Source: a virus
IMG/VR virus record: IMGVR_UViG_3300050821_001343
Span: 1-64,000 of that record
DNA length: 64,000 nt
Direction: 5' to 3' (one strand)
Shown here: piece by piece, positions 27,316 to 53,553 of the stretch
Position numbering within the stretch: the stretch's first letter is position 1
How the letters are laid out: each line of letters opens with the position of its first letter
The notes under the pieces: generated by a model
Databases searched by the model: none
The model's input: the letters and a program-made list of their open reading frames with translations, nothing else
What the model was told of the DNA's origin: nothing
Made by a program: the position numbers and the translations under genes

Positions 27316-27482
27316 TAGCAGCAAAGTTGGGCAAGAAGAACTTGGTTCGTCACCAAGCGGACCCGCGAAGTCATGCGCGGCATGGGCTGTATACCATGCT
27401 TCCTACGCCTCGATACAGCAAGTGCAGATGGCATTGCTCAACGATGACGAATTGCAGCCTACGGGCTGCACTTTTTTTGCTA
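27316..27482 (+). ncRNA. putative double-pseudoknot structured RNA with terminator
   Basis: nested helices, two 7-nt loop complements, and TGCAGCC-TACG-GGCTGCA followed by a T7 tract. Confidence 0.55.
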
Positions 27483-29149: not shown

Positions 29150-30508
29150 ATGGCCGCACAAGTTGTTCAAATTCCATTTACAACTCCCAACGCTGGTAAC
29201 TTTACGTTGCCTCAATCGTTGGGAGTGGTTCCCGGATCAGTAATTTTCGAGATGACTAGCGGCGGTGCTGTTTATTTTCAGCCTGCAAGGTTCGATGCAA
29301 ACAATTTGTACCTAGTAGCATCTGCTGCTGGACTTACAGGTTACGCAATTGTATTTGCAGCATCAAGTCCTTCCTTTCTTATCCCCGGACAAGCCAACTC
29401 AACAATTCAATTGCAAGAAGTTGTGGACGATGCTTCGACACTCGGTGATGTAGCCCCTGCACTTTCTACAGGCGGGTCCTCGCGTGACCCTGCCCTTTCC
29501 ATTGCAAACGACGTGATGCAGGCAATGATTAACGGAGGACCCGGAGGACAGCCTTACAACTGGAAATGGAATCGCTACAATCTTCCGGTGTTTTATACCA
29601 ACAGTTTGCAGCAAGACTATTTCATTCCTAATCTTGTGAACATCGGATGGCTTGAAAGCGGGTGGGCTGTAGACATCAATCAAACATCAATACCGAAACA
29701 ATCCTATCCTGTTGAGATAGATAAAGACTTGCTGGTAATGAACAACCAAAGCGGATACATTGGTAAAGCCGCATGGCTACCTAACAGTGTACTCAACACA
29801 GGCACGTGGGGAGCACAACCTCTTGGACCTACAGCGGGTAATCCGTCTGGGCAAACGACTCTGCCGGGACCAAATCTAACCGGACAGCAAAATCCCGGAC
29901 CAAACGTATTGTATACGAATCCACTTGGACAGCTTGTTACACCGTACAACGCAACAACCGCGATCAAAGACCCGAATGGTAACCTGTGGTGTTTGACAAC
30001 TTACGGCGTGTGCGGGGCTACACAACCAACATGGCCTACAAGTCCAGTTTATCCCACACTCCGCAACCCGAACTTGATTGCAACCACGGTAACAGATGGC
30101 ACATGTGTATGGACCGCCATTAACCCTTATGGACAGGGCATCAGGTTGAGTCCTATGCCGCCGCAGAGCGGTATCATTTGGGCGATTCAGTTAGTCGGTC
30201 AGATGGTTGCCCCTCGTTTCTTCAGGCTCTCGCAATACTTGAACCCTCTTCCTGATACAATGGAATGGGCGTTCAAACAAGGCTTCTTCGCGGAATGCTA
30301 TCGGAGAAATGCCGATCCAAAGATCAGAGCACGGTATAAGGAAGAACGGCAGAACTGGCTGGAAGCTTTGGACAAAGCGGTACGGCAATATGACCGCGAG
30401 AAAGATGACTTCGGCTTCTACCCCGGCAGTCCGGGAGTCATGGATACTGGATGGGGCTTCAACATGGTGACACCTTCGATGCCTTATGGACCGTGGGTAG
30501 GCTGGTAA
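29150..30508 (+). CDS. virion head-tail adaptor-like protein
   Basis: AN..MQ...P.NW.WNR motif; paralog of the next gene. Confidence 0.6.
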   Translation: MAAQVVQIPFTTPNAGNFTLPQSLGVVPGSVIFEMTSGGAVYFQPARFDANNLYLVASAAGLTGYAIVFAASSPSFLIPGQANSTIQLQEVVDDASTLGDVAPALSTGGSSRDPALSIANDVMQAMINGGPGGQPYNWKWNRYNLPVFYTNSLQQDYFIPNLVNIGWLESGWAVDINQTSIPKQSYPVEIDKDLLVMNNQSGYIGKAAWLPNSVLNTGTWGAQPLGPTAGNPSGQTTLPGPNLTGQQNPGPNVLYTNPLGQLVTPYNATTAIKDPNGNLWCLTTYGVCGATQPTWPTSPVYPTLRNPNLIATTVTDGTCVWTAINPYGQGIRLSPMPPQSGIIWAIQLVGQMVAPRFFRLSQYLNPLPDTMEWAFKQGFFAECYRRNADPKIRARYKEERQNWLEALDKAVRQYDREKDDFGFYPGSPGVMDTGWGFNMVTPSMPYGPWVGW

Positions 30509-30581
30509 CAATTCAAGTGACACCTATACGGCAGTGCTGGCACCAAAGCCGCGCTGCCGTTTTTCTTTGCATGGAGACAGA

Positions 30582-31508
30582 ATGCCATCAAGTTCTATTC
30601 AACTTTTACAAACCATTGAGTGGGCAAAGAGGTTTATATTTCAACGCCGCACGAACTTTGGCAACTTCAATGAGCCTGCCATTAGCAGCGCCAATACAAT
30701 TCTCCAGACCATACTGGGACCGCCGTTTGCATGGCCGTGGAACAGGGCTGTCACTGGTTTCATTACTACTCCCGGAATACAGGATTACACGATTTTCAAC
30801 TGGCAAGCCACTACGAATGTTTCTCTTGGATATGTACTGGTAGACTCGAATGGGAACAGTCAGTCAGTGACAACAGCCGGTACAACAGGAGCATCCCTTC
30901 CAACGTGGAATGCAACTACAAGCGGGACGACTGCTGATGGATCAGCCGTGTGGACTAACCTTGGTCCTATAGGTCTATCTAATGGCTCTACTACTTACAA
31001 CTTCTCGTGGATTGAAACGGCTTCACTGAATGCACCACAGGTTAACGGTAATGGGACAGTTTGGAAAGAGATTTCAAACAAGAATATGCTTGCTGTAGAA
31101 TCGAATACAGATCGTCCACACAGCATCTCCCCACAATTCACGGATGTGAACGGAAACATTACTTTCCGCTTGATGCCCTGTCCTGATAAAGCATATCCTG
31201 TATCTATCACGATGCAGCAAAAGGCTCCCTTGTTCACAGAAATTAGCCAAGAATGGGCACCAGTTCCAGACTATTTTAGTCATGTATACAACTGGGGATT
31301 CTTGAGTTTGATGTTCATGTTTGCTGATGACCCCGGTAGAGCGCAGTTCGCTAATCAGAAGTTTGTAGCACATCTTCTAAGTTCCGCTCATGGACTAACA
31401 GACACCGAACGCAACATTTGGCTCAACAACTGGCAGGCGGTATCAGGACAACAAGTAATCCTCGCAACGAACATTCAACAAGGATTCCAAGGCAGAACAG
31501 CGTTATAA
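30582..31508 (+). CDS. virion head-tail adaptor-like protein
   Basis: AN..LQ...PFAWPWNR; FRL.PCPDKAY.V; GGAG RBS. Confidence 0.6.
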   Translation: MPSSSIQLLQTIEWAKRFIFQRRTNFGNFNEPAISSANTILQTILGPPFAWPWNRAVTGFITTPGIQDYTIFNWQATTNVSLGYVLVDSNGNSQSVTTAGTTGASLPTWNATTSGTTADGSAVWTNLGPIGLSNGSTTYNFSWIETASLNAPQVNGNGTVWKEISNKNMLAVESNTDRPHSISPQFTDVNGNITFRLMPCPDKAYPVSITMQQKAPLFTEISQEWAPVPDYFSHVYNWGFLSLMFMFADDPGRAQFANQKFVAHLLSSAHGLTDTERNIWLNNWQAVSGQQVILATNIQQGFQGRTAL

Positions 31509-31520
31509 GCGGAGCAATAA

Positions 31521-32414
31521 ATGGCAATTTCACATGTTAGCACAGCTTCCGCAGGAACCGGCACATCGACGTTTGCCAATAATCAAACGGGAAATGCCTT
31601 GTTTGCTGCGTTCATAGCCTATGGGGGCAGTTCTCCTTATACGTTTCCATCGACTATGACGGACACGGCTGGTAACTTATACAATTTGCTCTACGACGGC
31701 ACTGATGTCACATTTACACAATTCACTACATGGGCTATATATTGCTGCCCCTCTTGTATTGGTACTACAACTTTAGTTCAAACAACGTATGTGAATCCTG
31801 ACGGAAGTCCTGTTGCAAATGGGACTCTTTTGATCCGCTTGAACCGGGACGGAATCACATCAGATAAACAGATTCAATCTAACTTCATCAGAATCCCATT
31901 GGATTCTCAAGGTCGTGTTACGGGAAGTCCTGTTTTGCCTTTGACCTCAGCAATTACTCCTTCGGGAACCTATTACATAGGGAAGGTATACAACTCGACC
32001 GGACAACTTGTAGGTATACCATTTATAGTTCCTGTTCAAAACGCATCTTCTAACTCGTTTACAACTCCTACTTCGGGAAGTGTAGCTACACGTAGCATGG
32101 GAGCAGAATTTTCTGGTTTTAACGGAGTAGTCACGTTGGATCAGGGAGTAGGTCCATCAGAAGATGTGACCCTTGGTTATATACAAGTCCCTCCGGCATC
32201 GGGAGGACCTCTTATAACTATAGGTGATTTTGCATTAGGCATGGCGTTGAACGTTTCTGGGGTGTGTAATGCCGCAGCAGGGGCTAATGCTCTTTATACC
32301 GGAGGAGACACTATTCTTCAATGGGCTATTGCAAACGCCACGACCTATAGGCAGAATTTTTCCTTTACAGGTGGGGTATCACAAAGCGCCTTGGTAGCAG
32401 CATTTTTCGCATAA
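31521..32414 (+). CDS. virion/tail accessory protein
   Basis: beta-rich; internal module homologous to 36158-36508. Confidence 0.65.
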   Translation: MAISHVSTASAGTGTSTFANNQTGNALFAAFIAYGGSSPYTFPSTMTDTAGNLYNLLYDGTDVTFTQFTTWAIYCCPSCIGTTTLVQTTYVNPDGSPVANGTLLIRLNRDGITSDKQIQSNFIRIPLDSQGRVTGSPVLPLTSAITPSGTYYIGKVYNSTGQLVGIPFIVPVQNASSNSFTTPTSGSVATRSMGAEFSGFNGVVTLDQGVGPSEDVTLGYIQVPPASGGPLITIGDFALGMALNVSGVCNAAAGANALYTGGDTILQWAIANATTYRQNFSFTGGVSQSALVAAFFA

Positions 32415-32421
32415 GGATGAC

Positions 32422-34335
32422 ATGAATCTCAAGAAAATACTATCATTTATAGCATTGGCATTGGTTTCGGTCATGCCTATTGTAGCGCAGCAACCTCAAT
32501 CTCAAGTTGACCCTCCCTTTCAAGTCAACGCTATCCTAACAAACGGAGTAGCGCCGGGATACGCGCCTCTGCCGGGAACCGGACTGAATGTAAACATTGG
32601 ACCCGGCACAGCCAATAACGCTGGTACAATTGAATTCTATGCTGGTGGCACTCTAGCCCTTACTGCGAGCGTTACAAACTACATCTATCTGGACGGTACG
32701 ACGTACCTTCCTTCAGTAAAAACAAGCGCATTTTCGGCATCAGACATTGCAATCGCAGAAGTTTTAACAAGCGGATCGGGCATATTGTTTACGTGTAACA
32801 CGAACGGTACTACATCACCATCAGGAACATTGCCTTGCATCGTTGATGTCAGAACGATGTTCTTCAAAGCTAGCGCTGGTGCTGGTATCACCTTGACCAC
32901 GAGCGGCACGAGTGGTCCTGCATCATTAAGCGGCACAGTTTTGAACATCCCGAATTACACGTATACTTTACCATCCACTGTAGTACAAACGAATCAAGCG
33001 AATACATACGGCAACTTCTTGCAAGACTTCTCAGGCGCAACGATGAAAGTTCCATCGGGCTTGAGTGGATGTCTAAGCGCATCTACGGGAACATTAAGCG
33101 GAAGTGGTTTTGCTTGTGGTTCGACGGGTGTGGTTTCTTTTAACACTCGTACTGGGGCAGTTGTTCTTAGTGCAGCCGATGTGAACTCAGTCGGAACAAT
33201 TTCTAATCCAACTACCGGCAATTCACAGACAGCTACCGATTTGGCGTCTTATCCAAGTCCGTGTGCTGGTAGTCAGTTTTCGCAAGGGCTATCATCAGGA
33301 AGCAACAATTGCGCGACTCCAGCGGGCAGCGGTACCGTTAGTCCCGGCTCAGGATATGCAATTCCGGCCTACCCAAGCGGATCATCAAGCACCATAGGAC
33401 CATCGAATATCAAAACAGACGCTTCCGGGAATGATTTAAGTGTTCCGGGTAACGTAGCGGTAGGTGCCAGTCCTCCCACTCTCGCAGGGCAGTTTAACCT
33501 TGAGACACAAGGGGTAACTCCAACCCCAACTGCTAGTCAGTTTAGTTGCAGCGATGTTACTAACGTGGTGGAGTGTACGAACAACGGCGCAGCAGTCTTT
33601 AATTCGTTGATAGGAGCAGCGGCAGATGGAGTAACACTCGTACAAACCGGAGCCACTCTTGCATGTGCCAGTGCTACCACATCTAATCATGGGTGCGTAG
33701 AACCGGATGGTAACTCAGCACATTTTTATCGAGGAGACGGAACCTTTGCTACACCAGCGGGGGGCGGTAATTACGTTAACCTCTGCACAGCAGTGACGCT
33801 TGCGAATGCTACTTGTGTTAATGGGCAGATTGTGCCAAGTGCTAGTGTTACAAATTTCACTATCAGCGTTATACCTCAAACTTATCTCAATTTGATTTTC
33901 GATTGTGACTTGCGTAGCACTGATACAACGACGGGCAACTTTTCGGACTCTGCTACGACTTTCAACAGCATCACTGCCTATAGCTATTTGTCCTCTCAGG
34001 CCAACAACGCTAGTGTTTCTATTGCTCCACAGGGATTCAACGTTTCTGCTATGCAACTCTGGGACGTGGCAAACGCGAACGTTACTACTGCTTATTCTGG
34101 CGGCGGTGAGATGACCATCCAGAACTATGCAGGTACAACATTCAACAAACACGGATGGTTTACCAATGGTCTTGTGGAACCGGCTGCTTCGGGAAATCCC
34201 GCAGCAGGCACGACTTTCATATATCGTGGGGATTTCTGGTCGATGTCCACAGCAGCCATTGCGTCCATCAAAGAGGCTCTAAATCACGGTAATTACGCAA
34301 CCGGGTCAACCTGTACTCTTTACGGAACAAACTAG
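32422..34335 (+). CDS. tail-fibre-like protein with Sec signal peptide
   Basis: MNLKKILSFIALALVSVMPIVA-QQ; VSFNTRTGAVVL and FYRGDGTFA fibre motifs; 14 Cys. Confidence 0.75.
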   Translation: MNLKKILSFIALALVSVMPIVAQQPQSQVDPPFQVNAILTNGVAPGYAPLPGTGLNVNIGPGTANNAGTIEFYAGGTLALTASVTNYIYLDGTTYLPSVKTSAFSASDIAIAEVLTSGSGILFTCNTNGTTSPSGTLPCIVDVRTMFFKASAGAGITLTTSGTSGPASLSGTVLNIPNYTYTLPSTVVQTNQANTYGNFLQDFSGATMKVPSGLSGCLSASTGTLSGSGFACGSTGVVSFNTRTGAVVLSAADVNSVGTISNPTTGNSQTATDLASYPSPCAGSQFSQGLSSGSNNCATPAGSGTVSPGSGYAIPAYPSGSSSTIGPSNIKTDASGNDLSVPGNVAVGASPPTLAGQFNLETQGVTPTPTASQFSCSDVTNVVECTNNGAAVFNSLIGAAADGVTLVQTGATLACASATTSNHGCVEPDGNSAHFYRGDGTFATPAGGGNYVNLCTAVTLANATCVNGQIVPSASVTNFTISVIPQTYLNLIFDCDLRSTDTTTGNFSDSATTFNSITAYSYLSSQANNASVSIAPQGFNVSAMQLWDVANANVTTAYSGGGEMTIQNYAGTTFNKHGWFTNGLVEPAASGNPAAGTTFIYRGDFWSMSTAAIASIKEALNHGNYATGSTCTLYGTN

Positions 34336-34343
34336 GACACATA

Positions 34344-35849
34344 ATGAAGAATCTGATTAAGCTGTTTGCCAGTTATCTAATGCTTGTACCTATGCTATTA
34401 ATGGCTCAGACCAATATAGGCAATGGGGTAACAATAGGTACTGGCGTATCAGAGGGTAGTAGTATCACGGTTGGTTCGAATTCCATAGGACTGACCGATG
34501 GGAACTTCAACCTATCGTTTAATGATCCCGGAAACGTCTTGGAGGGTATGCGGTTTGTGTACTCCCAATTTACGCAGCAAGCCCCTATCACGAATGGCTC
34601 TGCTGACGGATGCAGTGTTGTATACAATAACAAGATTTACATGGTGGGAGGGTATGGAGCAAGTGCTTCAACCCCTTTGAACTATGTACAAATCTTTGAT
34701 CCTCTCGCAAACAGTTGGTCACAGGGAGCAGTTATTCCCACTGCCGAATGGGGGGCAGCTTGTTCTCTATACAACGGTAATATTTACGTTTTTGGCGGAG
34801 TCAATAGCAGCGCCGAAACTCCCACCAACAATGCATATGTGTACAGTATTGCAGGGAACTCATGGTCTACACTGACCGTAATGCCGTCCAGTATTTCAGA
34901 CGGCATCATGGCTGTAACCGTTGGGAACTTCATTTACATTTTGTATGAATCAACATTCTGGCAATTTGATCCGTCAGGAAGCGGGGGACTAGGTTCGTAC
35001 AGCACACTTACTGCCCCTCCCAGTGCAGCGCGTGTGCAGTGGGCCGCGACTGGATACATCAATGTGAGCGGAGATGACCGTATTTATGTCATTGGGGGCA
35101 GCACTTCTGGCGGATCAGGATACGGAAACGGAAACTACTACTACAGTGTAACTAACTCAACATGGAGTTCTGCTCAAGCTGCGGGACCGTATAGCGCACA
35201 CGGACAACTTCAACAGGCCATCCTTAATGGCACCCTTTACTATGTAGGTGGCTACGATACGTCAGTTTTCTATCCTACCCTGTACGCTTATACTGCTTCA
35301 ACGAACTCATGGTCTAGCCAATTGGCTGAGTTAAGTCAATGGCGAGATGGTGTGGTAGGAGGGTTCATTGGTAGCGAGTTGTATGTGATTGGGGGACGTA
35401 ACGCTAACTCACCAAATGTATTCGGAATGACCGAGAATGAATACTTTGCTGTTGGGTCAACTCCGATTACATCGACATTTACTAAGATTCAACTTCACTA
35501 CACAGGTAGCCCCTCTGGTACGGTTCGTCTGGGAATTTATTCAGACTCCGCTGGATCACCCGGTTCTTTGATCCTTGATGCCGGAACAGTGGCTATGGTC
35601 AACGGATGGGCCGTGATTACCGGACTCAGTGTATCTTCGCTAGTCCTCGGCACACACTATTGGTTAGTCTTCCTGCAAAATGCATCGGCTTCGGTATCAT
35701 ATACGGCTGGTGCTCCGACTGGATCAGCGAGCGGTGCTCATTGTAGCAATAATACTGTGACTTATGGAGCACTGCCATCCACTTTCCCAAGTGGCGGTAT
35801 ATCCTGCCAAGTTGGTAGTATGTACGCGGAGAGGCTCACAGTTAACTAG
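34344..35849 (+). CDS. Kelch beta-propeller protein with signal peptide
   Basis: repeated IY.vGG...Y....NSW blades; MKNLIKLFASYLMLVPMLLMA-Q. Confidence 0.85.
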   Translation: MKNLIKLFASYLMLVPMLLMAQTNIGNGVTIGTGVSEGSSITVGSNSIGLTDGNFNLSFNDPGNVLEGMRFVYSQFTQQAPITNGSADGCSVVYNNKIYMVGGYGASASTPLNYVQIFDPLANSWSQGAVIPTAEWGAACSLYNGNIYVFGGVNSSAETPTNNAYVYSIAGNSWSTLTVMPSSISDGIMAVTVGNFIYILYESTFWQFDPSGSGGLGSYSTLTAPPSAARVQWAATGYINVSGDDRIYVIGGSTSGGSGYGNGNYYYSVTNSTWSSAQAAGPYSAHGQLQQAILNGTLYYVGGYDTSVFYPTLYAYTASTNSWSSQLAELSQWRDGVVGGFIGSELYVIGGRNANSPNVFGMTENEYFAVGSTPITSTFTKIQLHYTGSPSGTVRLGIYSDSAGSPGSLILDAGTVAMVNGWAVITGLSVSSLVLGTHYWLVFLQNASASVSYTAGAPTGSASGAHCSNNTVTYGALPSTFPSGGISCQVGSMYAERLTVN

Positions 35850-35857
35850 GAGAATAC

Positions 35858-36154
35858 ATGAACTGGCAATGGCTTAAATCAATTTGGAGCGAGCCAAATG
35901 GTAACGGATCGTCTACACGAATCCATATGACTGTCTTGATTGCATTCATAATCGGAGTAGGGATTTCGTTTGGCGTTGCGACCCATCAGAAACGCTTTTC
36001 TATCGAACAGTTCGATAACTTTCTGAACGCAGGAGCAACTTTTATCGTGACCACGTGCGGTCCTCTTTATGCGGCCAATAAGGTAGCGGATTGGGGCAAG
36101 AACCACGACAATCAACCAAACCAACCAAACCAACCAAACCAACCCGGAGCCTAG
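35858..36154 (+). CDS. holin-like membrane protein
   Basis: two TM segments; SE.NG.GSSTR motif; NQP repeat tail. Confidence 0.6.
   Translation: MNWQWLKSIWSEPNGNGSSTRIHMTVLIAFIIGVGISFGVATHQKRFSIEQFDNFLNAGATFIVTTCGPLYAANKVADWGKNHDNQPNQPNQPNQPGA
36110..36145 (+). repeat. 9-bp tandem repeat (AACCAACCA x4, encodes NQP)
   Basis: read directly from the sequence. Confidence 0.9.
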
Positions 36155-36157
36155 AAT

Positions 36158-36508
36158 ATGTCAACAGTAAATCAGATCGTAAATGGGGCGTTTCAAGACC
36201 CCGAAGGCAACCCTCTTGCGAATGGTTTTTTACTGTTTGAGTTAAGTCAAGACGGTGTTGTAAACACAAGCACTCGGGTATGCGCGGGGCATACCATACG
36301 TGTCCCGCTTAACTCAAGCGGAGATGTTCCATCATCGCCTATTTATAGCCTGTGGCCGAACACGGTGATAACACCTTCGACTACATTCTATACTCTGTCT
36401 GCGTACTCGTCTACGGGACAACTTGTTTGGGGGCCGAATCCAGTTTCAATCACAGCATCCCCAAGTCCTCTTGATTTGGGCACCCTAATACCGGGAGATA
36501 TTAACTAA
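36158..36508 (+). CDS. tail accessory/adaptor module protein
   Basis: F.DPEGNPLANG.L.FEL..DG...LWPN..ITP..T.Y. Confidence 0.65.
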   Translation: MSTVNQIVNGAFQDPEGNPLANGFLLFELSQDGVVNTSTRVCAGHTIRVPLNSSGDVPSSPIYSLWPNTVITPSTTFYTLSAYSSTGQLVWGPNPVSITASPSPLDLGTLIPGDIN

Positions 36509-39500
36509 ATGCCAAACAGTCTATCCCTTGCTGGCGCACAACCCCAGAAACAACCCCGCTTTGCTCCGATTTTCACATCGAGGTTTTTCTCGGGTATATG
36601 GACAAATCGTAGTCCTCTTAGAGACGCAACTACCTCTCGTATTGTCGAAAAATTCTACGGCCAAGCCGGGGATGCCATCATTGCCGGGACCAACATCGAG
36701 ATTACGAATAAACTGACTTTTGCTCGCAGACCCGGCACTTCTGTGTATGATTCCAACAGCTATACGGACCCAGATCGGTACTACGAGTTTCGTTTGTTCA
36801 ACTCCACTACTGAACAGATTGATGTGATGATAGACCAAGCCAATGCTTTGTATTCTCTACATGGCGGCGTAAAGACATTGGTATTCACAAAGAGCACAGG
36901 CTCGGGACAGACTTACATGCAGTCTGTGGGCAACGAGTTATATTTTGCAGACGGTGTGGACAACAAGAAATGGCTTCAGAGTTTGTTCATTCGTTCCAAC
37001 AGCACCTTGATCAACACAAACGTTAACCCATTCTTCACCACTTTCCTCATAGACCCGAACGGTAACATTCAACAGTTAACGGGATCATACGTTACGGCAA
37101 ATGCTGTGAACTGGGGCGATGGCCTTCTTATCATCACTACTGACCAAACCAACTTGCTTACATCGGGAGTTGTAGCCGTTGGGGATAGCATCACCTTCCC
37201 TAATACTATGACTGCAACACAGTTGGAGGGGTTGACACTTGAAGTCACCGGAATAGCCGCCAACGAACTAGAGTTCTCTTACATCAATTTGACAACTCCT
37301 ACCTACAGTGGCGCAGAAAGTCACGTAGTTTTGGAGAACATTGGATCGGGAACTCCTACTACCGGATCAGGTACTCCAACGTGGAGCACAGTTGTACCTT
37401 CTCCGTCTAATAACTTTGCCGGTGGAGTCACACTTGATGGCTCGGCTCTCTGGACAAACAGAGGATTGCCGGTAGAGAATTGGGGAATTGATATAAGCAA
37501 CGGCAAGCAATTGGCTAAACCATTGCCTGTTTCTCCGTCAGTCTCCGAAACCATTGCTGGTGGCAGTTCAAGTTCATCTCAAACTGGCCCCGGTTCAAAT
37601 ATTACATCTAATACTCTATCAGGTTTTGGATCATCACCTGTATCTGAAAACGTCACTTTGAATATGACGTTCAATGCGACCTCAACCTTCAACTTTACAG
37701 TATTGGCCGGTGGACCTGATCCTGCCAATTACGCACAGATACTTGTGTCTCCTGATGGCGGTGCGTCTTATATTTCTTTGTATACGCAAACGTTTCAAAC
37801 TCCATTTGGAGCAACTTCACCATACACAATCGCAGTGAGCAACATCCCGTTAAGCACGGTTCTATCCGGCGTGAGCAACTTGAATAACATTCAGGTCAAG
37901 ATCATTACGGAATCTTTCGGAGCGAATGCAGGCGATGTGGCGAATTTTACTGTCACGCTTGGAGCTATCACTGTAGCAACGGGAAACAACGCATTACCAT
38001 GGACCGCCAACACTGCATACAGCTTGGGTCAGGTTGTAATTGACAGCAACAACAACCTCCAAACCGTTACGGTAGCTGGTATATCAGGACTAGTACAGCC
38101 AAATTGGAATACCATTCTAGGAGGTACGACGTTCGACAACTCTATAACTTGGGAGAATACATTCATCCAAGCCATCTCTGCATTCAACGGCGGGTTTGAG
38201 TACAGCATTGCTCTCGTCAACAGTTTGGATGCAACCGTATCAAATGCTACTCCTTTGTCAGTGGCTACAGGCAACTTTGTTGGGGCTCAAGGTGTAGCAA
38301 TTCCAGCAGGAGCCGGACTGCCTCCGTTGAGTCAGATTGACCCGCAAGCGGACTATGTGGATATTTTCAGAACAGTTGATGGCGGCTCTGTGCCGTTCTT
38401 AATTAACGGTCCCGGAAACTTTCCGTATACAATACCACTTGCTCAATACATTGCCGAGGGGTATGTAGATAATACTCTCGACACTCAGTTGAACAATCAA
38501 ATATCGGGAGCTATTGCTGGAGAGAACACTCCGCCCGGCATCGGAGCAATCAACCTTACGTATCACCTTAGCCGAATCTGGTACAGCATTGGAAATGTAG
38601 TCTACTGGACTACTGGGCCAGATACACCAGTCGGCAACGGAATCAACGGCACATCACCTTTGAACTTCGCCGCTATGCCATCATTGGTCAAGAGAATTGT
38701 ACCAACGACAAGCGGGGCACTCATCTTCACTGTGTCCGACGTGTATATCATTCAAGGAAACGGAACGACTAACAATCCAATTCAAGGAGCATTACCATTG
38801 CTTCCGGGTATTGGACTGTTGAGCTACAATGCGTTGGATCAGAACGGACCGACTATTGGATTATTTACGACCGACAATCAGTTTATCATACTTGATCCCT
38901 CATCAGGAACAACGTATGCTGGATTTCCCATTGGCGATCAGCTAAGGCAGAATAACGGATCACCGGGCACAAGCTGGAATCCAGCCAATGTATATGTCGC
39001 ATGGCATGTACAAGGCGAAGACCAAGCTTGGTATGTTTGTGACGGTACTAATGGATGGTACAGATTAATGTCCACACCGGCTCCTGAAAGCGGTTACACA
39101 TGGTCGCCATTTGCAACCATCACAGGCGGGGCCGGTGCCGTGCAGAGCGTCGAGGTAACCCCCGGAGTTCATAGACTTCTCATTGGACCCACGGGAACAG
39201 GTGAACTACTGCAACGAGATTTGACTGTGTTTACCGACAATGGAACAACCTATCCTGCTAACGCAACGATTGGCTCTCTAGTGCTGGCACAACCGGGTCA
39301 AGTAGCAGAAGTCGCTCACATTGTTTGCGAATCAGCCAAGGTCGGTGCCCCTGTAGAACTTGGATTCTTGACCGACGAGGCATTTCCTTATTACACAGGA
39401 CCGATTGATATTCTTAAGGAATGGACATCTGATCCTCCGAATTTGTCACCTAGCCAATCACTGTATAGTCAACGTTTCTATTTAGCAAATATAGACGATG

Positions 39501-39616
39501 ACGACGCAGCGGTGATGCGACATTGCCAAATTCAGATCATATTCTCACCTTATGATACTGTGCAAAATGAGATGCTAACCCTCACGGTTTTTGGGGCCTA
39601 TTCGCAGGAGGTATAA
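36509..39616 (+). CDS. tail nozzle/tubular-like protein
   Basis: 1035 aa, beta-rich; N-terminal RRPG motif; position before the ejection genes. Confidence 0.6.
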   Translation: MPNSLSLAGAQPQKQPRFAPIFTSRFFSGIWTNRSPLRDATTSRIVEKFYGQAGDAIIAGTNIEITNKLTFARRPGTSVYDSNSYTDPDRYYEFRLFNSTTEQIDVMIDQANALYSLHGGVKTLVFTKSTGSGQTYMQSVGNELYFADGVDNKKWLQSLFIRSNSTLINTNVNPFFTTFLIDPNGNIQQLTGSYVTANAVNWGDGLLIITTDQTNLLTSGVVAVGDSITFPNTMTATQLEGLTLEVTGIAANELEFSYINLTTPTYSGAESHVVLENIGSGTPTTGSGTPTWSTVVPSPSNNFAGGVTLDGSALWTNRGLPVENWGIDISNGKQLAKPLPVSPSVSETIAGGSSSSSQTGPGSNITSNTLSGFGSSPVSENVTLNMTFNATSTFNFTVLAGGPDPANYAQILVSPDGGASYISLYTQTFQTPFGATSPYTIAVSNIPLSTVLSGVSNLNNIQVKIITESFGANAGDVANFTVTLGAITVATGNNALPWTANTAYSLGQVVIDSNNNLQTVTVAGISGLVQPNWNTILGGTTFDNSITWENTFIQAISAFNGGFEYSIALVNSLDATVSNATPLSVATGNFVGAQGVAIPAGAGLPPLSQIDPQADYVDIFRTVDGGSVPFLINGPGNFPYTIPLAQYIAEGYVDNTLDTQLNNQISGAIAGENTPPGIGAINLTYHLSRIWYSIGNVVYWTTGPDTPVGNGINGTSPLNFAAMPSLVKRIVPTTSGALIFTVSDVYIIQGNGTTNNPIQGALPLLPGIGLLSYNALDQNGPTIGLFTTDNQFIILDPSSGTTYAGFPIGDQLRQNNGSPGTSWNPANVYVAWHVQGEDQAWYVCDGTNGWYRLMSTPAPESGYTWSPFATITGGAGAVQSVEVTPGVHRLLIGPTGTGELLQRDLTVFTDNGTTYPANATIGSLVLAQPGQVAEVAHIVCESAKVGAPVELGFLTDEAFPYYTGPIDILKEWTSDPPNLSPSQSLYSQRFYLANIDDDDAAVMRHCQIQIIFSPYDTVQNEMLTLTVFGAYSQEV

Positions 39617-46625: not shown

Positions 46626-47033
46626 TTGTTAAGACAAGATGATTTTTGCCGGTCGCAATTAGTCCTTGCAGGATGGAGACACGGACATATCTATGGGGGG
46701 CATCTCGGAAGCTGTTTAATCATGAGTTGCCTCGCTAACCGCCAGAAAGCGGGATGGGGACCATGGCTAGAGATTTTAGACACAATACCAAGGTATGCTG
46801 CCACAATTGAACAGCCTGAAGGGATACCCTCGATTTGGGAACCTAACTTCGTGAGACTCTTGCACGAAGTTGAATCCATCTCGGAAGGCTCCAAGGACTA
46901 TGCAAACGGAGCAATGTATTGGTTTGACTCTTCGAAACCTGTCACCAATGAATGGTTCAAAGAGAAGCTTTTAGATAACAAAGAATCACATCCAGTAATA
47001 GGGAACATGAATTCCCTAATGTTGTTAAGATAG
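46626..47033 (+). CDS. SleB/Hydrolase_2-like cell wall hydrolase homolog
   Basis: LANR..AGWG...D.ANGA.YW...IGN; TTG start after AGGAGG. Confidence 0.5.
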   Translation: MLRQDDFCRSQLVLAGWRHGHIYGGHLGSCLIMSCLANRQKAGWGPWLEILDTIPRYAATIEQPEGIPSIWEPNFVRLLHEVESISEGSKDYANGAMYWFDSSKPVTNEWFKEKLLDNKESHPVIGNMNSLMLLR

Positions 47034-49529: not shown

Positions 49530-49750
49530 TGTCGAAACTAAGCAAGCCAATCTCAGGTGATCCACTCCCCATGAAGGAAAAGAAAGAAGACGGCGGTTGG
49601 TCGCAGTTCGAAGCGTGGGCGGGACAGGAATGGTTTGGAGGAGACAATCCGTACAAGGAGCGTTATGGCAGCAGCAACACCGTCAACACCACCAACATCA
49701 GTAATACCCCCAGTAAGTTCCCTAAGCCAAGTGGAAAGCGCAGCAACTAG
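49529..49750 (+). CDS. hypothetical protein
   Basis: TAATG overlap; overlaps the next gene by 86 nt. Confidence 0.4.
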   Translation: MSKLSKPISGDPLPMKEKKEDGGWSQFEAWAGQEWFGGDNPYKERYGSSNTVNTTNISNTPSKFPKPSGKRSN

Positions 49751-50438
49751 TTGGTTTAAGACACACGAGACATTACTGATCGTGTTCATGTCCTTAATCG
49801 TAGGGACATTTCTGGTTTACAAAGGACTGGATATTGTATCCAGTTACGAGAATCACAAAGCCCAACAAGCCATCGCGGTCGTGCAGGCACAGAGCAATCA
49901 GAATGCTGCTGATTTGACCACAGTGAAACAAACACTTGCTGCCTATCAAACGGCTCTTGCGAACGCTACCACGGCCAATCAGACGTTAGCACAGGCTGTG
50001 ACAGCACGTAACACAGTTGTAGTCAAGCAAGAATCGACCGACGCCACTCTTCCTCAGTCCGCATTAGGGCAGAGATGGGAAACATTGGTAAACGATACGG
50101 GTGTGACTCCAACTCCTACTGGATTTGCGGTCCCGGAGAAAGCAGCCCTCGATACGGTACAATCTCTTGAGCAAGTTCCGGTTTTGACGCAGGATGTGAA
50201 AGACGCTCAGGCTCAGACGGCCAATGATCAAATCGCACTGACGCAGGCTAACAATGTAATAGATCAAGGAAAAACTTTGGTAACCGGCCTACAAAATCAG
50301 TTGACAGATGAGACGAAATCGTGTAGTATTCAATTATCGGCTGCAAAGGCAGCAGCGAATAAGGGCAAATTCAAATGGTTCGGTATCGGATACGTTTCTG
50401 GATTCGTTAGCGGACTAGTGGTAGCGATTGTAAAGTAG
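49665..50438 (+). CDS. membrane-anchored coiled-coil protein (spanin-like)
   Basis: AAGGAG RBS; N-terminal TM, long Gln/Ala/Thr helix, hydrophobic C-terminus. Confidence 0.55.
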   Translation: MAAATPSTPPTSVIPPVSSLSQVESAATSWFKTHETLLIVFMSLIVGTFLVYKGLDIVSSYENHKAQQAIAVVQAQSNQNAADLTTVKQTLAAYQTALANATTANQTLAQAVTARNTVVVKQESTDATLPQSALGQRWETLVNDTGVTPTPTGFAVPEKAALDTVQSLEQVPVLTQDVKDAQAQTANDQIALTQANNVIDQGKTLVTGLQNQLTDETKSCSIQLSAAKAAANKGKFKWFGIGYVSGFVSGLVVAIVK

Positions 50439-50439
50439 T

Positions 50440-50515
50440 GGGCCAGTAGCTCAATTGGGAGAGCAATCCCCTTGCACGGGATAGGTTGCAGGTTCGATGC
50501 CTGTCAGGTCCACCA
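50440..50515 (+). tRNA. tRNA-Ala(TGC)
   Basis: ATCCC-CTTGCAC-GGGAT; G3-U70; CCA. Confidence 0.93.
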
Positions 50516-50523
50516 AAAGTTTT

Positions 50524-50600
50524 GCCCTGTTAGCTCAGTTGGTCAGAGCATAACTTTTACAAAGTTGGGGTCGGAGGTTCGAATCCTTCACGGGGCACCA
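50524..50600 (+). tRNA. tRNA-Val(TAC)
   Basis: TAACT-TTTACAA-AGTTG; CCA. Confidence 0.92.
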
Positions 50601-50609
50601 AGAGGTTGT

Positions 50610-50714
50610 ATGCATCATAAACACCATGTCGAGGATGTAGCTTGGGACATTTTCATAGGACCGTTCTACTTCACTTGGGGAATCCTGAGATGGATTTTTG
50701 AGAACTGGGATTAA
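50610..50714 (+). CDS. very small hydrophobic peptide
   Basis: GAGGT RBS; MHHKHHVEDVAWDIFIGPFYFTWGILRWIFENWD. Confidence 0.4.
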   Translation: MHHKHHVEDVAWDIFIGPFYFTWGILRWIFENWD

Positions 50715-50727
50715 CTGAAAGGGGCAT

Positions 50728-50904
50728 ATGGACGCAGCACGCGAGGAAGCACGGGCAGCACGAATTGAGCAGCGCCGAATCCTTGGGGACTACTACCGGG
50801 AGCTATCGGTCAACTATTTGGACTATGAGGTTCTAGCAAAAACCATTGGGCCAACTCTGGCATTTCCAGCGCGTCCAAATATTCCAGAATACGAGAACGC
50901 TTAA
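50728..50904 (+). CDS. small hypothetical protein (58 aa)
   Basis: AAGGGG RBS; translated by hand, MDAAREEARAAR... Confidence 0.5.
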   Translation: MDAAREEARAARIEQRRILGDYYRELSVNYLDYEVLAKTIGPTLAFPARPNIPEYENA

Positions 50905-50911
50905 GGAAAAT

Positions 50912-51094
50912 ATGCGATCTACAACTTATTGTCGTAAACTAGAAGATGGAAGTGGCTTTGTCATTGTAAGAACCATTTTCAAGAGGTATAAGAATTTTAA
51001 TACTCCTTCCTATATCGACCAGCAATGGGAAGAAGCTTTAGCGACGGGTACGACGAAAGACGAAGCATGGTCAAATTACCGTCTAAAGGTTTGA
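50912..51094 (+). CDS. small hypothetical protein
   Basis: AAGGA RBS. Confidence 0.5.
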   Translation: MRSTTYCRKLEDGSGFVIVRTIFKRYKNFNTPSYIDQQWEEALATGTTKDEAWSNYRLKV

Positions 51095-51099
51095 ATTGT

Positions 51100-51173
51100 A
51101 TCGGGTTCGTTTAGTGGCAGGACGGCAGGCTTTGACCCTGCTCGCTGAGGTTCGATTCCTTGCCCCGGTGCCA
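51100..51173 (+). tRNA. tRNA-Gln(TTG)
   Basis: GCAGG-CTTTGAC-CCTGC; G73; CCA. Confidence 0.88.
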
Positions 51174-51186
51174 AGATTGGAGAGAA

Positions 51187-51567
51187 ATGAAGAGACTGGC
51201 AGTATTTCTTATCGTATTGGTAACAATGTGTCTGCCCGATCTTGGCGGTCATCTTAACTGGTACGCTGAAAAACAGAATGCAGGATTCATGCCAGTATGG
51301 TGCTATGATACAGGCATGAAGATGTCGGTCGATGAAGATTCACGCCATGTGGAATTAACCAAATCGAGCAAGGTCCCATATCTGTCCGATATTTTCCCCA
51401 TGTATGTGTATTCATTTGAGGATAGCAAATTCGAATTAGATGGAGTAATGAGCATAGGCGATCTACTTCTATGGAGTGGCTACGTCGGTTTCTTTTTCTC
51501 CCTGTTCTATTTGTTGGTGCTTTTGTTGGATGATTTGGTGACAGTTCTTTGCAGGTTTAGACATTGA
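51187..51567 (+). CDS. DUF5317-like membrane protein
   Basis: N.G.MPV...H...T..S...YLSDI...SIGDLL. Confidence 0.6.
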   Translation: MKRLAVFLIVLVTMCLPDLGGHLNWYAEKQNAGFMPVWCYDTGMKMSVDEDSRHVELTKSSKVPYLSDIFPMYVYSFEDSKFELDGVMSIGDLLLWSGYVGFFFSLFYLLVLLLDDLVTVLCRFRH

Positions 51568-51644
51568 GCGGGATTGTTTTGTAATGGTAGCATATCGGTC
51601 TTCCAAACCGTAAGGTATAGGTTCAAATCCGGTATCCCGCTCCA
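51568..51644 (+). tRNA. tRNA-Gly(TCC), imperfect
   Basis: GCGGGAT/ATCCCGC acceptor; U73; CTTCCAA loop; CCA. Confidence 0.8.
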
Positions 51645-51645
51645 T

Positions 51646-51722
51646 CTACCAGTGGCGAAGGGGTTTAACGCGGTCGGCTGCAACCCGTCTATTCACAGGT
51701 TCGAATCCTGTCTGGTAGTCCA
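51646..51722 (+). tRNA. tRNA-Cys(GCA)
   Basis: CTGCAAC loop; U73; CCA. Confidence 0.88.
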
Positions 51723-51735
51723 TTTGGAGGTACAC

Positions 51736-51924
51736 ATGACATACGTGGTGAAAGCACCGTCCAGCGCGGACGCAGGCAAGCAAATCCTCCTTAAGATCAC
51801 AGGCGTTGATTATTTCGAGGTAAACGCAGGAACACTTTTGTTCTACAAACGTTCTAGTAAGAATCCGGTTAAAGCATTCGGTCCGGGTGGATGGTTTTAC
51901 GTTCTTGAGAACGACAAGAAATAG
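51736..51924 (+). CDS. small hypothetical protein
   Basis: GGAGGT RBS. Confidence 0.6.
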   Translation: MTYVVKAPSSADAGKQILLKITGVDYFEVNAGTLLFYKRSSKNPVKAFGPGGWFYVLENDKK

Positions 51925-51931
51925 GAGATAC

Positions 51932-52360
51932 ATGAAGCACACAATTGAAAAACTACTTCTGACAGCAGCGTTGCTGTTCGGCTCACTCACTGTCCAAGCA
52001 CGGGCACAAGCACCAACGGTCACCCTGCCAAGCGCAACCGCTAGTCAGAGTAATCTGTCATGGACTAACTCCGCAAATTGTACGGCTGCTACCCCCTGTC
52101 TTATCAATCCGTATCGGATTGGTGGGCAATGTCCGGCGAATCTTGCAGGCACAACTGGCTGGACTCAACTACCCGCTACAGCGGCACAGGCAACTTCGGC
52201 AACGGACACAACCGTGGTAGCTGGTCAAACCTATAGCTACGTGGTTGAAGCAACATTTGTATCTGGCGGAAGTCCTAGTGGACCGTCGAATTGTGTAACT
52301 GTTTCAATCCCAAACGTACCGGGCGTCCCAACGGGCCTGAACGCGACCGTCACAAACTAG
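51932..52360 (+). CDS. secreted fibronectin type III-like protein
   Basis: signal peptide ...VQARA-Q; LSW...YR...TDTTVVAGQTYSYVVEA...S.PSN; 4 Cys. Confidence 0.8.
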   Translation: MKHTIEKLLLTAALLFGSLTVQARAQAPTVTLPSATASQSNLSWTNSANCTAATPCLINPYRIGGQCPANLAGTTGWTQLPATAAQATSATDTTVVAGQTYSYVVEATFVSGGSPSGPSNCVTVSIPNVPGVPTGLNATVTN

Positions 52361-52433
52361 TATGTAGGGAAATTTGGACCTTTGGCGGTTGGGTGAAGGT
52401 CTGCGAAAATAAGTAATCGACATGTGCCCACGC

Positions 52434-52545
52434 AAATCCTCTGTGCCGTATCCGGGTCAAGGAGTTAGTACATGAAGCGTGCCCTTCCCTCTAGTCGGGG
52501 AGAAGTTGACCTATCCGATTAGCGGCTGGCGAGATGAAGGGATTT
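52434..52545 (+). ncRNA. putative pseudoknotted RNA abutting tRNA-Thr
   Basis: AAATCCT/GGGATTT and GGGTCAA/TTGACCT helices; loop CTAGTCGG complementary to CCGATTAG. Confidence 0.45.
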
Positions 52546-52622
52546 GCCACGGTAGCTCAGTTGGTTAGAGCGGCAGTTTTGTAAACTGCGGGTCGGGAGT
52601 TCGAATCTCTCCCGTGGCTCCA
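52546..52622 (+). tRNA. tRNA-Thr(TGT)
   Basis: GCAGT-TTTGTAA-ACTGC; canonical cloverleaf; CCA. Confidence 0.95.
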
Positions 52623-52692
52623 TATTCCTACACCTTAGATGCATTCACTATTAGGTGTTTGTATGACAACGGAATGCTAAATTGGAGGCAGT

Positions 52693-53028
52693 ATGGCGAA
52701 GCAGTTATTGTTTTCTCTTACTGCCAAGGATTTTGATTTTCAATACTTCACTGTGAGTGGTCACGGAGGGTCTGGAAAAGATACATCCAACACAGGTGCA
52801 CGGTGCATTCATCGTGCGTCCGGTGCGACCGGAGAAGGCCGAGAAGAACGTAGTCAACTCAAGAACAGACAAAGCGCATTCGGTAAGTGTGTAAAATCCA
52901 AAAAGTTTCAGGCATGGCACAAATTAGAAACTATGCGTCGTCTAGGGCTACTCAAAGACATTGAGAGTCGAGTTGATGAGCAAATGAAAGACAAGAACTT
53001 AAAGATTGAATACATCACAGGAGATTAA
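52693..53028 (+). CDS. class I release-factor (RF-1 domain)-like protein with GGS variant
   Basis: SGHGGS....NTGARCIH..SG......ERSQLKNR..AF. Confidence 0.8.
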   Translation: MAKQLLFSLTAKDFDFQYFTVSGHGGSGKDTSNTGARCIHRASGATGEGREERSQLKNRQSAFGKCVKSKKFQAWHKLETMRRLGLLKDIESRVDEQMKDKNLKIEYITGD

Positions 53029-53092
53029 GCTAGAGGGAAACTGACCGGCTCCAACCCGGTACTCAGAGGTTCAAATCCTCTATCTCCTGCCA
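53019..53092 (+). tRNA. tRNA-Trp(CCA)
   Basis: AGGAGAT/ATCTCCT acceptor; ACCGG-CTCCAAC-CCGGT; G73; CCA. Confidence 0.88.
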
Positions 53093-53106
53093 ATTTTAGA
53101 GGCACC

Positions 53107-53553
53107 ATGCAACTAAGCGATCAAGGGGCAGCATTTATTGCTAGCTTTGAAGGTATCAAGCTTGTACCGTATAACGATTCAAATGGATGGGCAACAGTCG
53201 GCATTGGACATTTGATCCGTAAAGGTCCGGTACTACCAACTGACCTACCGATCACACTGGCGCAAGCCTATGACTTATTCCGGCAGGATGCAAAAATTGA
53301 AATCTCTATCATTGGCATCTACGTTAAGGTTCCAATCAATCAGAATCAATTTGATGCCCTCTGCTCTCTTTCCTACAACATCGGTGTCGGCAACTTTATG
53401 CGATCACCGATCCCATCCCTCATCAACAGCGGCCAGTTAGATCAAGTCCCCGCTGCGTTTCTCATCCACAACAAGGATGCTAAAGGCAACATCCTACGCG
53501 GCTTGACTCGTAGACGTGAGGCCGAAGTTGCAGTATTCAACAAACTAAGCTAA
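53107..53553 (+). CDS. endolysin, GH24 lysozyme
   Basis: FEG....YND..G..TVGIGH; QFDAL.S..YNIG; GL.RRREAE. Confidence 0.93.
   Translation: MQLSDQGAAFIASFEGIKLVPYNDSNGWATVGIGHLIRKGPVLPTDLPITLAQAYDLFRQDAKIEISIIGIYVKVPINQNQFDALCSLSYNIGVGNFMRSPIPSLINSGQLDQVPAAFLIHNKDAKGNILRGLTRRREAEVAVFNKLS

Follow-up and report, generated by a model that had tools for sequence, protein, structure and literature searches.

To our knowledge, textbooks without exception describe tailed phages as assembled entirely in the cytoplasm, and our searches of the full-text literature found no description of Sec-exported tail fibres in a tailed phage. In filamentous phages, g3p is exported by Sec, cut by signal peptidase and disulfide-bonded in the periplasm before being added to the particle, and it is a route of this kind, in which a receptor-binding virion protein matures in the periplasm before it joins the particle, that we tentatively consider here for FIB, a fibre-like protein of a tailed phage that is encoded beside a Kelch protein in IMG/VR virus record IMGVR_UViG_3300050821_001343. 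The window that we analysed is the first 64,000 nucleotides of that record. The likeness to g3p does of course have its limits, since g3p belongs to an inovirus that is extruded through the envelope, whereas the window phage is tailed and of lytic type, with a particle that is built in the cytoplasm.

Among tailed phages, the cultured podovirus Cellulophaga phage phi18:3 (NC_021794; Pachyviridae) encodes three consecutive large late proteins, gp085, gp086 and gp087, with signals cut before Gln, and its record lists them as structural 'based on experimental MS/MS proteomics analysis' (tandem mass spectrometry), so signal-bearing proteins can co-purify with tailed virions, although co-purification is not proof of attachment and the record makes no comment on the signals. 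The differences are that its host belongs to the Bacteroidota, that we found no sequence relation, and that Cys counts of 0, 1 and 3 show no pairing signature. It is also clear that a Gram-negative cell can export phage-type fibres: the mosaic adhesive trimer (MAT) fibres of Bdellovibrio bacteriovorus (Caulton et al. 2024, PMC10769870) can be likened to FIB by layout, both having, after the signal peptide, a beta-rich N-domain of ~130 residues that is conserved and a phage-like fibre and tip that vary, but they are cellular proteins of the predator, borne on its surface or on vesicles and encoded outside phage structural operons. Signal cleavage that exposes Gln has been described in phages of Porphyromonas gingivalis (Matrishin et al. 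2023, PMC10367356) and read as an adaptation to host Sec and signal peptidase I (SPase I); what differs there is that five genes of unknown function are concerned, together with capsid and spanin genes, and that nothing is said of tail fibres, Cys pairing or a virion partner. The nearest cultured relative of the window phage is the podovirus Tunturiibacter phage Tunturi_3 (PP885686), whose host belongs to the Acidobacteriota, and with which it has a common genome plan (portal 66%, adaptor 54% and gp19/w1035 59-66% identical) and a variable fibre slot at the same place; the Tunturi_3 paper (PMC11924767) makes no mention of signal peptides or virion proteomics.

From its signal peptide, FIB runs through a conserved N-terminal peptide and a shoulder-like beta domain into a fibre body with Cys loops, and it ends in a C-terminal domain; it has no sequence match in Pfam, PHROG or the Protein Data Bank (PDB). 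A sequence-only reading of the window had held that FIB, the Kelch protein and a third protein, which we call SP142, begin with signal peptides cleaved before Gln, and our analysis bears this out, in that the open reading frames (ORFs) are there and rule-based cuts fall directly before Gln in all three (see the table). Each N-terminus has a K-rich n-region, a hydrophobic core of 12-15 residues, small residues at -3/-1 and Gln at +1, and is by these features predicted to be a signal of the Sec/SPase I type, with the n-region, the h-region of ~8-15 residues and the -3/-1 residues that this type calls for. Our calls come from our own rule set (n-region charge, h-region and -3/-1 residues) combined with conservation, and not from a trained predictor, and 4 of the 87 window ORFs pass the rule, namely the three proteins just named and a lipoprotein-like ORF at 51160/51187. 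The FIB and Kelch ORFs are each preceded by a Shine-Dalgarno-like AGGA/GGAG, are separated from their neighbours by 7-8 nt, and sit in a run of structural genes with intergenic gaps of 0-25 nt, within which promoter- and terminator-like sites occur at chance level. Three other accounts of these N-termini were tried and rejected. Lipoproteins of the superinfection-exclusion type (T5 Llp, Cor) do not fit proteins of 637 and 501 aa that carry Gln rather than Cys at +1 and are translationally coupled in a late operon; signal-anchor-release (SAR) sequences do not fit h-regions so strongly hydrophobic (10-residue Kyte-Doolittle means 2.5-3.0) and followed by a conserved A-x-A/Q site; and the idea that a frameshift or read-through fuses the upstream gene to FIB, so that the 'signal' would be internal, fails because the starts of the run-through ORFs are over-extended and a normal signal stands directly ahead of QQPQ in each.

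Conservation carries much of the case. When the first 150 residues of FIB were searched against 1.84 billion cluster representatives, 620 clusters matched at E <= 0.001 and 433 at E <= 1e-10, and the matches, in proteins with total lengths of 108-1786 aa, nearly always began at residues 1-20 of both sequences; the module that defines this family (FIB-N) comprises the signal, the QQPQ peptide and a beta domain of ~125 residues. A survey of homologues, which the sequence-only reading had put forward as a check, gives a clear answer: the strict signal rule is passed by 131 of 149 FIB-N representatives, most of the others being mis-called (truncated or over-extended) starts with a signal visible before QQPQ, and 12 of the 15 full-length Kelch homologues (50-70% identity) likewise have a signal cut before Gln. 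Among the 131, Ala occupies position -1 in 117 and Gln position +1 in 111, and the mature protein starts QQPQ, QNPQ or QSPQ in 102. The h-regions stay hydrophobic as their sequence drifts, whereas the -1 Ala and +1 Gln are kept, which is the pattern of a cleaved signal and not of a structural helix, and unrelated proteins of the same cassettes are also signal-bearing. FIB-N was found in Acidobacteriota phages and prophages only: there are 62 loci in IMG/VR, and on bacterial contigs from one genome per species all 39 matches lie in metagenome-assembled genomes (MAGs) of Acidobacteriota (Acidobacteriaceae, Terriglobia), in a scan that used alignment A2, since A3 was too diverse for genome scanning. 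A collection of phage isolates gave no match to FIB and generic Kelch matches only to its neighbour. On a 400-kb stretch of an Acidobacteriota host chromosome (L123-L142, G002:C7:100001-500000), Gln stands at +1 in 11 of 40 signal-like N-termini, called by the same rule with no bonus for Gln, the background frequency of Gln being a few per cent, so the phage signals follow host usage. By eye, several more such host cases can be seen, which amounts to a Q-rule-like preference outside the Bacteroidota (the paper on the Bacteroidetes Q-rule does not cover Acidobacteria); three Acidobacteriota genomes yielded no type I glutaminyl cyclase (PF05096), a result that is uninformative on pyroglutamate formation.

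The cysteines tell a similar story. The counts of 14, 4 and 4 given earlier for FIB, the Kelch protein and SP142 are correct, as is the placing of 12 of the 14 FIB cysteines in six close pairs (125/139, 217/232, 281/297, 376/385, 415/425 and 455/465, spaced 9-16 residues, with Cys 495 and 631 left over), and the signal-less beta-rich proteins beginning at 13614, 25426 and 25956, said to have 0-1, hold 1, 0 and 1. Across the family, the mature Cys count is even in 85% of the 131 FIB-N proteins, about eight standard deviations from the 50% of chance, and in the fetched loci signal-bearing proteins contain 1.7% Cys with an even count in 78%, against 0.98% and 47% for signal-less proteins of at least 200 aa. 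Of the two cysteines that are conserved in the FIB-N domain, 150 sequences have both and 3 have neither (the window FIB being one of these), and no sequence has just one, a covariation that is reported here for the first time. In three signal-less Kelch homologues (P0023, P0026 and P0030), a signal-less N-terminal domain of ~110 residues replaces the signal and linker, and one Cys of each presumed pair, or all four, are lost, while the signal-bearing forms retain them; since the three are close kin, this loss counts as one evolutionary event. Taken together, conserved signals, a Cys pair kept or lost as a unit, even Cys counts and the Kelch losses make export and disulfide folding well supported, and we think it very probable from these comparisons that the proteins of the fibre slot are exported and oxidatively folded, which lends strong comparative support to the original proposal of Sec export with disulfide bonding outside the cytoplasm. 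As a separate observation, a Cys-loop motif (SYP..C.G.QFSQGLSSGSNNCATP) at 33247-33324 (FIB residues 276-301) is 79-90% conserved in P0008, P0010, P0012 and P0016, which are otherwise unrelated signal-bearing fibres, and it is sometimes repeated within one protein.

In every respect except its signal, FIB looks like a modular receptor-binding protein (RBP). Its mature peptide of ~30 residues, with near-invariant Q23, P25, Q26, P31, N41-Y47 and P49, is modelled with low confidence as a monomer, and the beta domain that follows reaches predicted local distance difference test (pLDDT) values of 80-94 over residues 55-120. This domain aligns with the tail fibre of cyanophage A-1(L) (8KEC; Z 9.8, root-mean-square deviation (rmsd) 2.3, 84 residues, by VIA-align), with residues 39-147 of the lactococcal phage p2 RBP (2BSD; Z 7.8), which form its baseplate-docking shoulder, and also with the 1358 RBP (4L92) and residues 58-172 of Bordetella phage Mtd (1YU0), and the top 15 rows of the fold search are all phage RBP or baseplate chains. 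Over these four proteins, FIB residues 40-152 give Z 5.6-9.8 and rmsd 2.3-3.0 across 84-93 residues, where Z < 8 can mean a common beta arrangement alone, so that the modelled domain has the shoulder fold of p2-type RBPs, with middling Z values and as a fold-level likeness only. Like FIB, the shoulder RBPs have a conserved proximal domain and then a variable distal part; unlike FIB, to which they are 6-21% identical, they have no signal peptide and assemble in the cytoplasm. The C-termini of the FIB-N family are hypervariable, with occasional lectin/ConA-like, GDSL esterase, pectate-lyase-like or DUF2961 domains. The idea that FIB is simply gp15, gp16 or gp18 of Tunturi_3 with its anchor swapped for a signal was rejected, hhalign of the FIB-N profile against all three having found nothing.

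The Kelch protein consists of its signal, a Gly/Ser-rich linker, a six-bladed Kelch propeller and a C-terminal beta domain of ~130 residues. Its identity had been called correctly from the sequence: Kelch_1 matches at 90 bits against a cut-off of 20.1 (E 6e-26), the six-bladed model has a predicted template-modelling score (pTM) of 0.72, and Foldseek finds Kelch domains at E 1e-17. An attempted 'Rosetta stone' link, in which the N-domain of the signal-less Kelch variants would be the domain w452N described below, was abandoned (BLAST best E 0.14, hhalign 0.2%).

In at least 10 distinct Tunturi_3-like contigs the gene order runs w452, adaptor, gp14-like protein, FIB, 0-2 more signal-bearing proteins, TM98, second gp14-like protein and w1035, and one contig fits 1728 + 398 + 615 residues of signal-bearing proteins into this fibre slot. 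Tunturi_3 and contig L076 have signal-less fibres in the same slot; those of Tunturi_3 (gp15, gp16 and gp18) have 1, 1 and 7 Cys, and that phage is without FIB, Kelch or w452N domain, and its TM98-like gp27 is located elsewhere. Upstream of FIB, residues 88-167 of w297 match Tunturi_3 gp14 and the N-terminus of gp15; downstream, w116 is equivalent to the first 116 residues of the signal-less fibre gp15 and is kept after the signal cassette in relatives. The gp14-like domain of ~90 residues (motif ...DP.GNP.ANG...), present in w297, w116, Tunturi_3 gp14 and the gp15 N-terminus, is kept, in phages whose fibres bear signals, as separate proteins of 93-117 aa on either side of the cassette; its listed positions are those of w297 and w116 in the window together with L002 13003-13290 and 13298-14779. 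TM98 homologues, which are confined to the podophage group, lie directly after signal-bearing genes in related podophages (L018, L036, L037, L043, L049, L054 and others). TM98 has a remote match to gp27 (hhalign 78%, E 1.8e-5), which adjoins a gene annotated endolysin; Pfam, PHROG and PDB-sequence searches gave nothing significant for it (Phage_holin_2_3 only at E 0.79), its gene lies in the fibre slot of the window, and the ESM Atlas places it near DUF2644 at 0.89, a weak lead. That TM98 may be holin-like is a lead and not a finding.

A possible partner for the fibre is found on w452, which corresponds to Tunturi_3 gp12 with an extra 80-residue N-terminus holding the small beta domain w452N. 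A hidden Markov model (HMM) places w452N upstream of 59 of 67 distinct FIB-N copies. In 44 of these 59 it forms the very C-terminal end of the directly upstream signal-less gene, often in 2-4 tandem copies and in prophage-type tails unrelated to the podophage layout, and in the other 15 it lies 0.3-6.6 kb upstream in the podophage layout. Neither Tunturi_3 nor L076 has it, and nor do the distant relatives L057-L067, which are signal-less and not of the Acidobacteriota; no junction shows a fusion of w452N to FIB-N, and Pfam, PHROG and PDB-sequence searches gave it no match. By structure, it resembles small tail-protein beta domains including Mtd_N (ESM Atlas; template-modelling score 0.67-0.75 over ~70 residues; a weak lead). 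Because w452N is always on signal-less structural proteins and FIB-N always behind a signal, and the two travel together, their pattern of occurrence would be best explained by physical interaction. Both this candidate partner domain and the Acidobacteriota family are new here.

Table. Features of the window that are discussed in the text, in order of position, with the basis for each assignment
Feature	Coordinates	Strand	Basis or remarks
w452, structural protein	29150..30508	+	Tunturi_3 gp12 ('structural protein') homologue, 66% identity over residues 83-452, plus w452N
w452N, 65-residue beta domain, N-terminus of w452	29153..29359	+	alignment A6; HMM; no signal peptide
Head-to-tail adaptor	30534..31508	+	Pfam SU10_adaptor E 3e-8; 54% identity to Tunturi_3 gp13
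w297, signal-less, directly upstream of FIB	31521..32414	+	gp14-like domain of ~90 residues
FIB, fibre of receptor-binding type, 637 aa, predicted exported	32422..34335	+	ORF and start; 620-cluster family; 14 Cys
FIB signal, Sec/SPase I type (predicted), 22 residues, cut ..PIVA/QQPQ	32422..32487	+	rules, family conservation; modelled helix at residues 3-16
FIB-N, mature N-terminus (QQPQ...NGVAPGY) then beta-sandwich 'shoulder', residues 23-152	32488..32877	+	invariant columns; model
Kelch protein, 501 aa, predicted exported	34344..35849	+	Pfam; model; fold search
Kelch signal peptide (predicted), cut ..LLMA/QTNI after residue 21	34344-34406	+	rule-based
TM98, small membrane protein	35858..36154	+	hydropathy: one clear transmembrane segment at residues 23-42, a weaker second
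w116, stand-alone gp14-like domain	36158..36508	+	45% identity to Tunturi_3 gp15 residues 1-114
w1035, large conserved tail protein closing the variable fibre slot	36509..39616	+	59-66% identity to Tunturi_3 gp19; synteny
SP142, third signal-bearing protein, 4 Cys	51932..52360	+	signal (predicted) 51932-52006, cut ..ARA/QAPT after residue 25

From the signals, their conservation, the Cys behaviour, the fold, the slot and the co-occurrence we infer a route with export, disulfide formation, docking and a set moment for docking. FIB would be translated late from the structural operon, exported unfolded via Sec and cut by signal peptidase I before Gln, and would then fold, and probably trimerise, in the periplasm with about seven disulfides. 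The particle would be built in the cytoplasm with w452N on w452 as a signal-less 'socket', onto which the mature N-terminus and shoulder of FIB would dock only when the inner membrane is breached at lysis, a breach that TM98 may time or mediate. The Kelch protein would use the same export route, perhaps as an accessory that binds or modifies glycans, whether carried on the fibre or free. We favour joining to the virion, the second half of the sequence-only proposal, on circumstantial grounds, namely a fold like the shoulder of RBPs, a mature N-terminus that hardly varies, a candidate partner domain, the replacement of other fibres in the slot, the coupling to a late operon and the Cellulophaga precedent, and our belief that FIB is a receptor-binding fibre made in two compartments and joined to the particle at lysis is a tentative one, somewhat short of an even chance. 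The broader proposition, that tailed phages of Acidobacteriota finish their particles across a membrane, with a socketed core made in the cytoplasm and Sec-exported, oxidised fibres plugged on at lysis, is possible but rather doubtful. Several points weigh against this picture of late joining. Eight of the 67 FIB-N copies have no w452N, and contig L070, over its 17 kb, carries w452N and TM98 without a FIB; docking on w452N is read from co-occurrence, and the same pattern would arise if the two were simply passed on or transferred together; fibre and particle, meeting within seconds around lysis, would have to beat dilution; the holin-likeness of TM98 comes solely from the 78% hhalign match to an unannotated Tunturi_3 protein; and the Kelch protein is without FIB-N or any other recognisable docking domain. 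This last point, together with the N-terminal domain of its signal-less relatives, suggests that the signal-bearing Kelch protein is not particle-bound, and for the Kelch protein taken alone, export without ever joining the virion is the more likely reading.

The main rival extends that thought to both proteins, which would be exported and never enter the particle, serving instead as soluble glycan-binding or glycan-cutting proteins that are stabilised by disulfides in the periplasm; the sequence-only reading had itself offered secreted receptor decoys or exclusion factors as its alternative, and these stay within the range of this rival. Exclusion factors, with which such proteins might be compared, are typically small and expressed early or from a lysogen. 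FIB and Kelch are large and translationally coupled to late structural genes. In one variant of the rival, they would act on the infected cell's own envelope polysaccharide, by removing receptors, excluding other phages or sparing progeny from debris; in the other, lysis would set them free as enzymes that strip nearby cells of their exopolysaccharide. The export and disulfide signature fits this account equally well, as does a Kelch protein that has no docking domain when its signal-less relatives have an N-terminal one; some C-termini of the FIB-N family are indeed enzyme- or lectin-like, other phages group up to four signal-bearing proteins in cassettes that have neither FIB-N nor w452N (L003), and the signal-bearing, Q-rule proteins of Porphyromonas phages were taken by Matrishin et al. 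2023 (PMC10367356) to be envelope modifiers. What it leaves unexplained is why an RBP shoulder and a near-invariant mature N-terminus should persist over 620 clusters, why a conserved domain on signal-less structural proteins should travel with FIB, and why FIB replaces the ordinary fibres of the slot instead of adding to them. We regard it as a real possibility that nonetheless falls well short of being probable.

It is unlikely, in our view, that the N-domain anchors the fibre for display on the surface of the infected cell or lysogen, or on vesicles, for adhesion or conversion in the manner of Bdellovibrio MAT. The architecture does match that of MAT fibres and many FIB copies lie in prophage-like clusters of Acidobacteriota chromosomes, but the window belongs to a phage genome that is complete, 99 kb long and repeated at its termini, the genes sit inside a late structural operon, and at neither end was an outer-membrane targeting signal, lipobox or sorting tag seen. 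Least probable, indeed very unlikely, is that the N-termini are not export signals at all, the hydrophobic stretch being structural or ignored by Sec and the proteins folding in the cytoplasm with their Cys oxidised after release, since, although this is the textbook route of every characterised tailed phage, hydrophobicity is conserved without sequence around a kept -1 Ala and +1 Gln, unrelated proteins of the same cassette bear signals, the signal-less Kelch variants have dropped their Cys pairs, and host signal-like N-termini have the same +1 Gln preference.

If fibres really are plugged on from outside, particle assembly would end with a step at lysis that is so far unknown for Caudoviricetes, with the periplasm as the folding compartment for host-recognition parts and with disulfide-stabilised fibres suited to acidic soil. 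Tying the last assembly step to lysis would also bear on how lysis timing is coordinated with virion maturation. In practical terms, fibre annotation in uncultured soil phages would change, and expression for host-range or depolymerase work would have to move to the periplasm or to oxidising strains. Even under the rival in which the proteins stay free, up to ~2,700 residues of late coding capacity would be devoted to exported envelope-active proteins, something undescribed for Acidobacteriota phages. The family itself offers clear handles for testing, in the invariant mature N-terminus (QQPQ), the covarying Cys pair and the candidate partner domain.

The virus record is complete, at 99,181 bp with direct terminal repeats, and we take it for a short-tailed phage of soil Acidobacteriota. 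Among the genes of the window are those for a DNA polymerase of family A, a portal and adaptor of SU10 type, an internal protein with an SLT domain and a class II ribonucleotide reductase. The true start of the adaptor is probably the ATG at 30582, which is preceded by a Shine-Dalgarno sequence. A short repeated motif or domain common to w452, the adaptor and w1035 (phrog_20658 'head decoration' match; BLAST cross-hits) probably represents a small beta unit that is repeated in the tail. The sole strong intrinsic-terminator-like site near the tail operon, at 27453-27479, has a 7-bp GC-rich stem followed by T7 and lies just upstream of the gene run that includes FIB and Kelch.

The sequence-only reading fared less well on two details of SP142, which it took for an FN3 protein of the tail operon. 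Neither Pfam nor PDB sequence searches support FN3 (indeed, they gave no match at all), and the gene lies 16 kb away among lysis-type genes; a homologue is found directly after a signal-bearing FIB in L034. The likely lysis region spans 49635-53553, with an Rz-like membrane protein at 49635-50438 (a weak PHROG match), a strong phrog_7 endolysin at 53107-53553 and the lipoprotein-like ORF already mentioned, whose likely start is 51187 and whose ..LVTMC is an atypical lipobox. The homologue of Tunturi_3 gp26, annotated 'endolysin', at 46626-47033 has no family match.

Signal-bearing cassettes occur elsewhere too. At 7939-13393 of L003, an IMG/VR contig from a different phage type, four to five consecutive signal-bearing proteins are encoded with no FIB-N or w452N nearby, including a 64%-identical Kelch homologue, a 425-aa fibre-like protein and a likely lipoprotein (..SVGC), and a protein of this cassette is found also on a 230-kb contig; more than one phage lineage therefore has exported cassettes at the end of its structural module. 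The FIB copies in prophage-like chromosomal clusters sometimes occupy the same locus in several species. In particular, Terriglobia MAG contigs L093, L095, L102, L103, L107 and L114 have a recurring tail-gene cluster with genes of ~199, 128, 60, 1325, 161 and 221 aa (the last ending in w452N), then a signal-bearing FIB. Its neighbours of 1325, 161 and 221 aa had no match in Pfam, PHROG or PDB-sequence searches. The same host genes (~324 and 470 aa, minus strand) follow downstream, with a CorA transporter directly after the cluster in L103, and the cluster may be a vertically kept prophage remnant or an element like a gene transfer agent or a tailocin.

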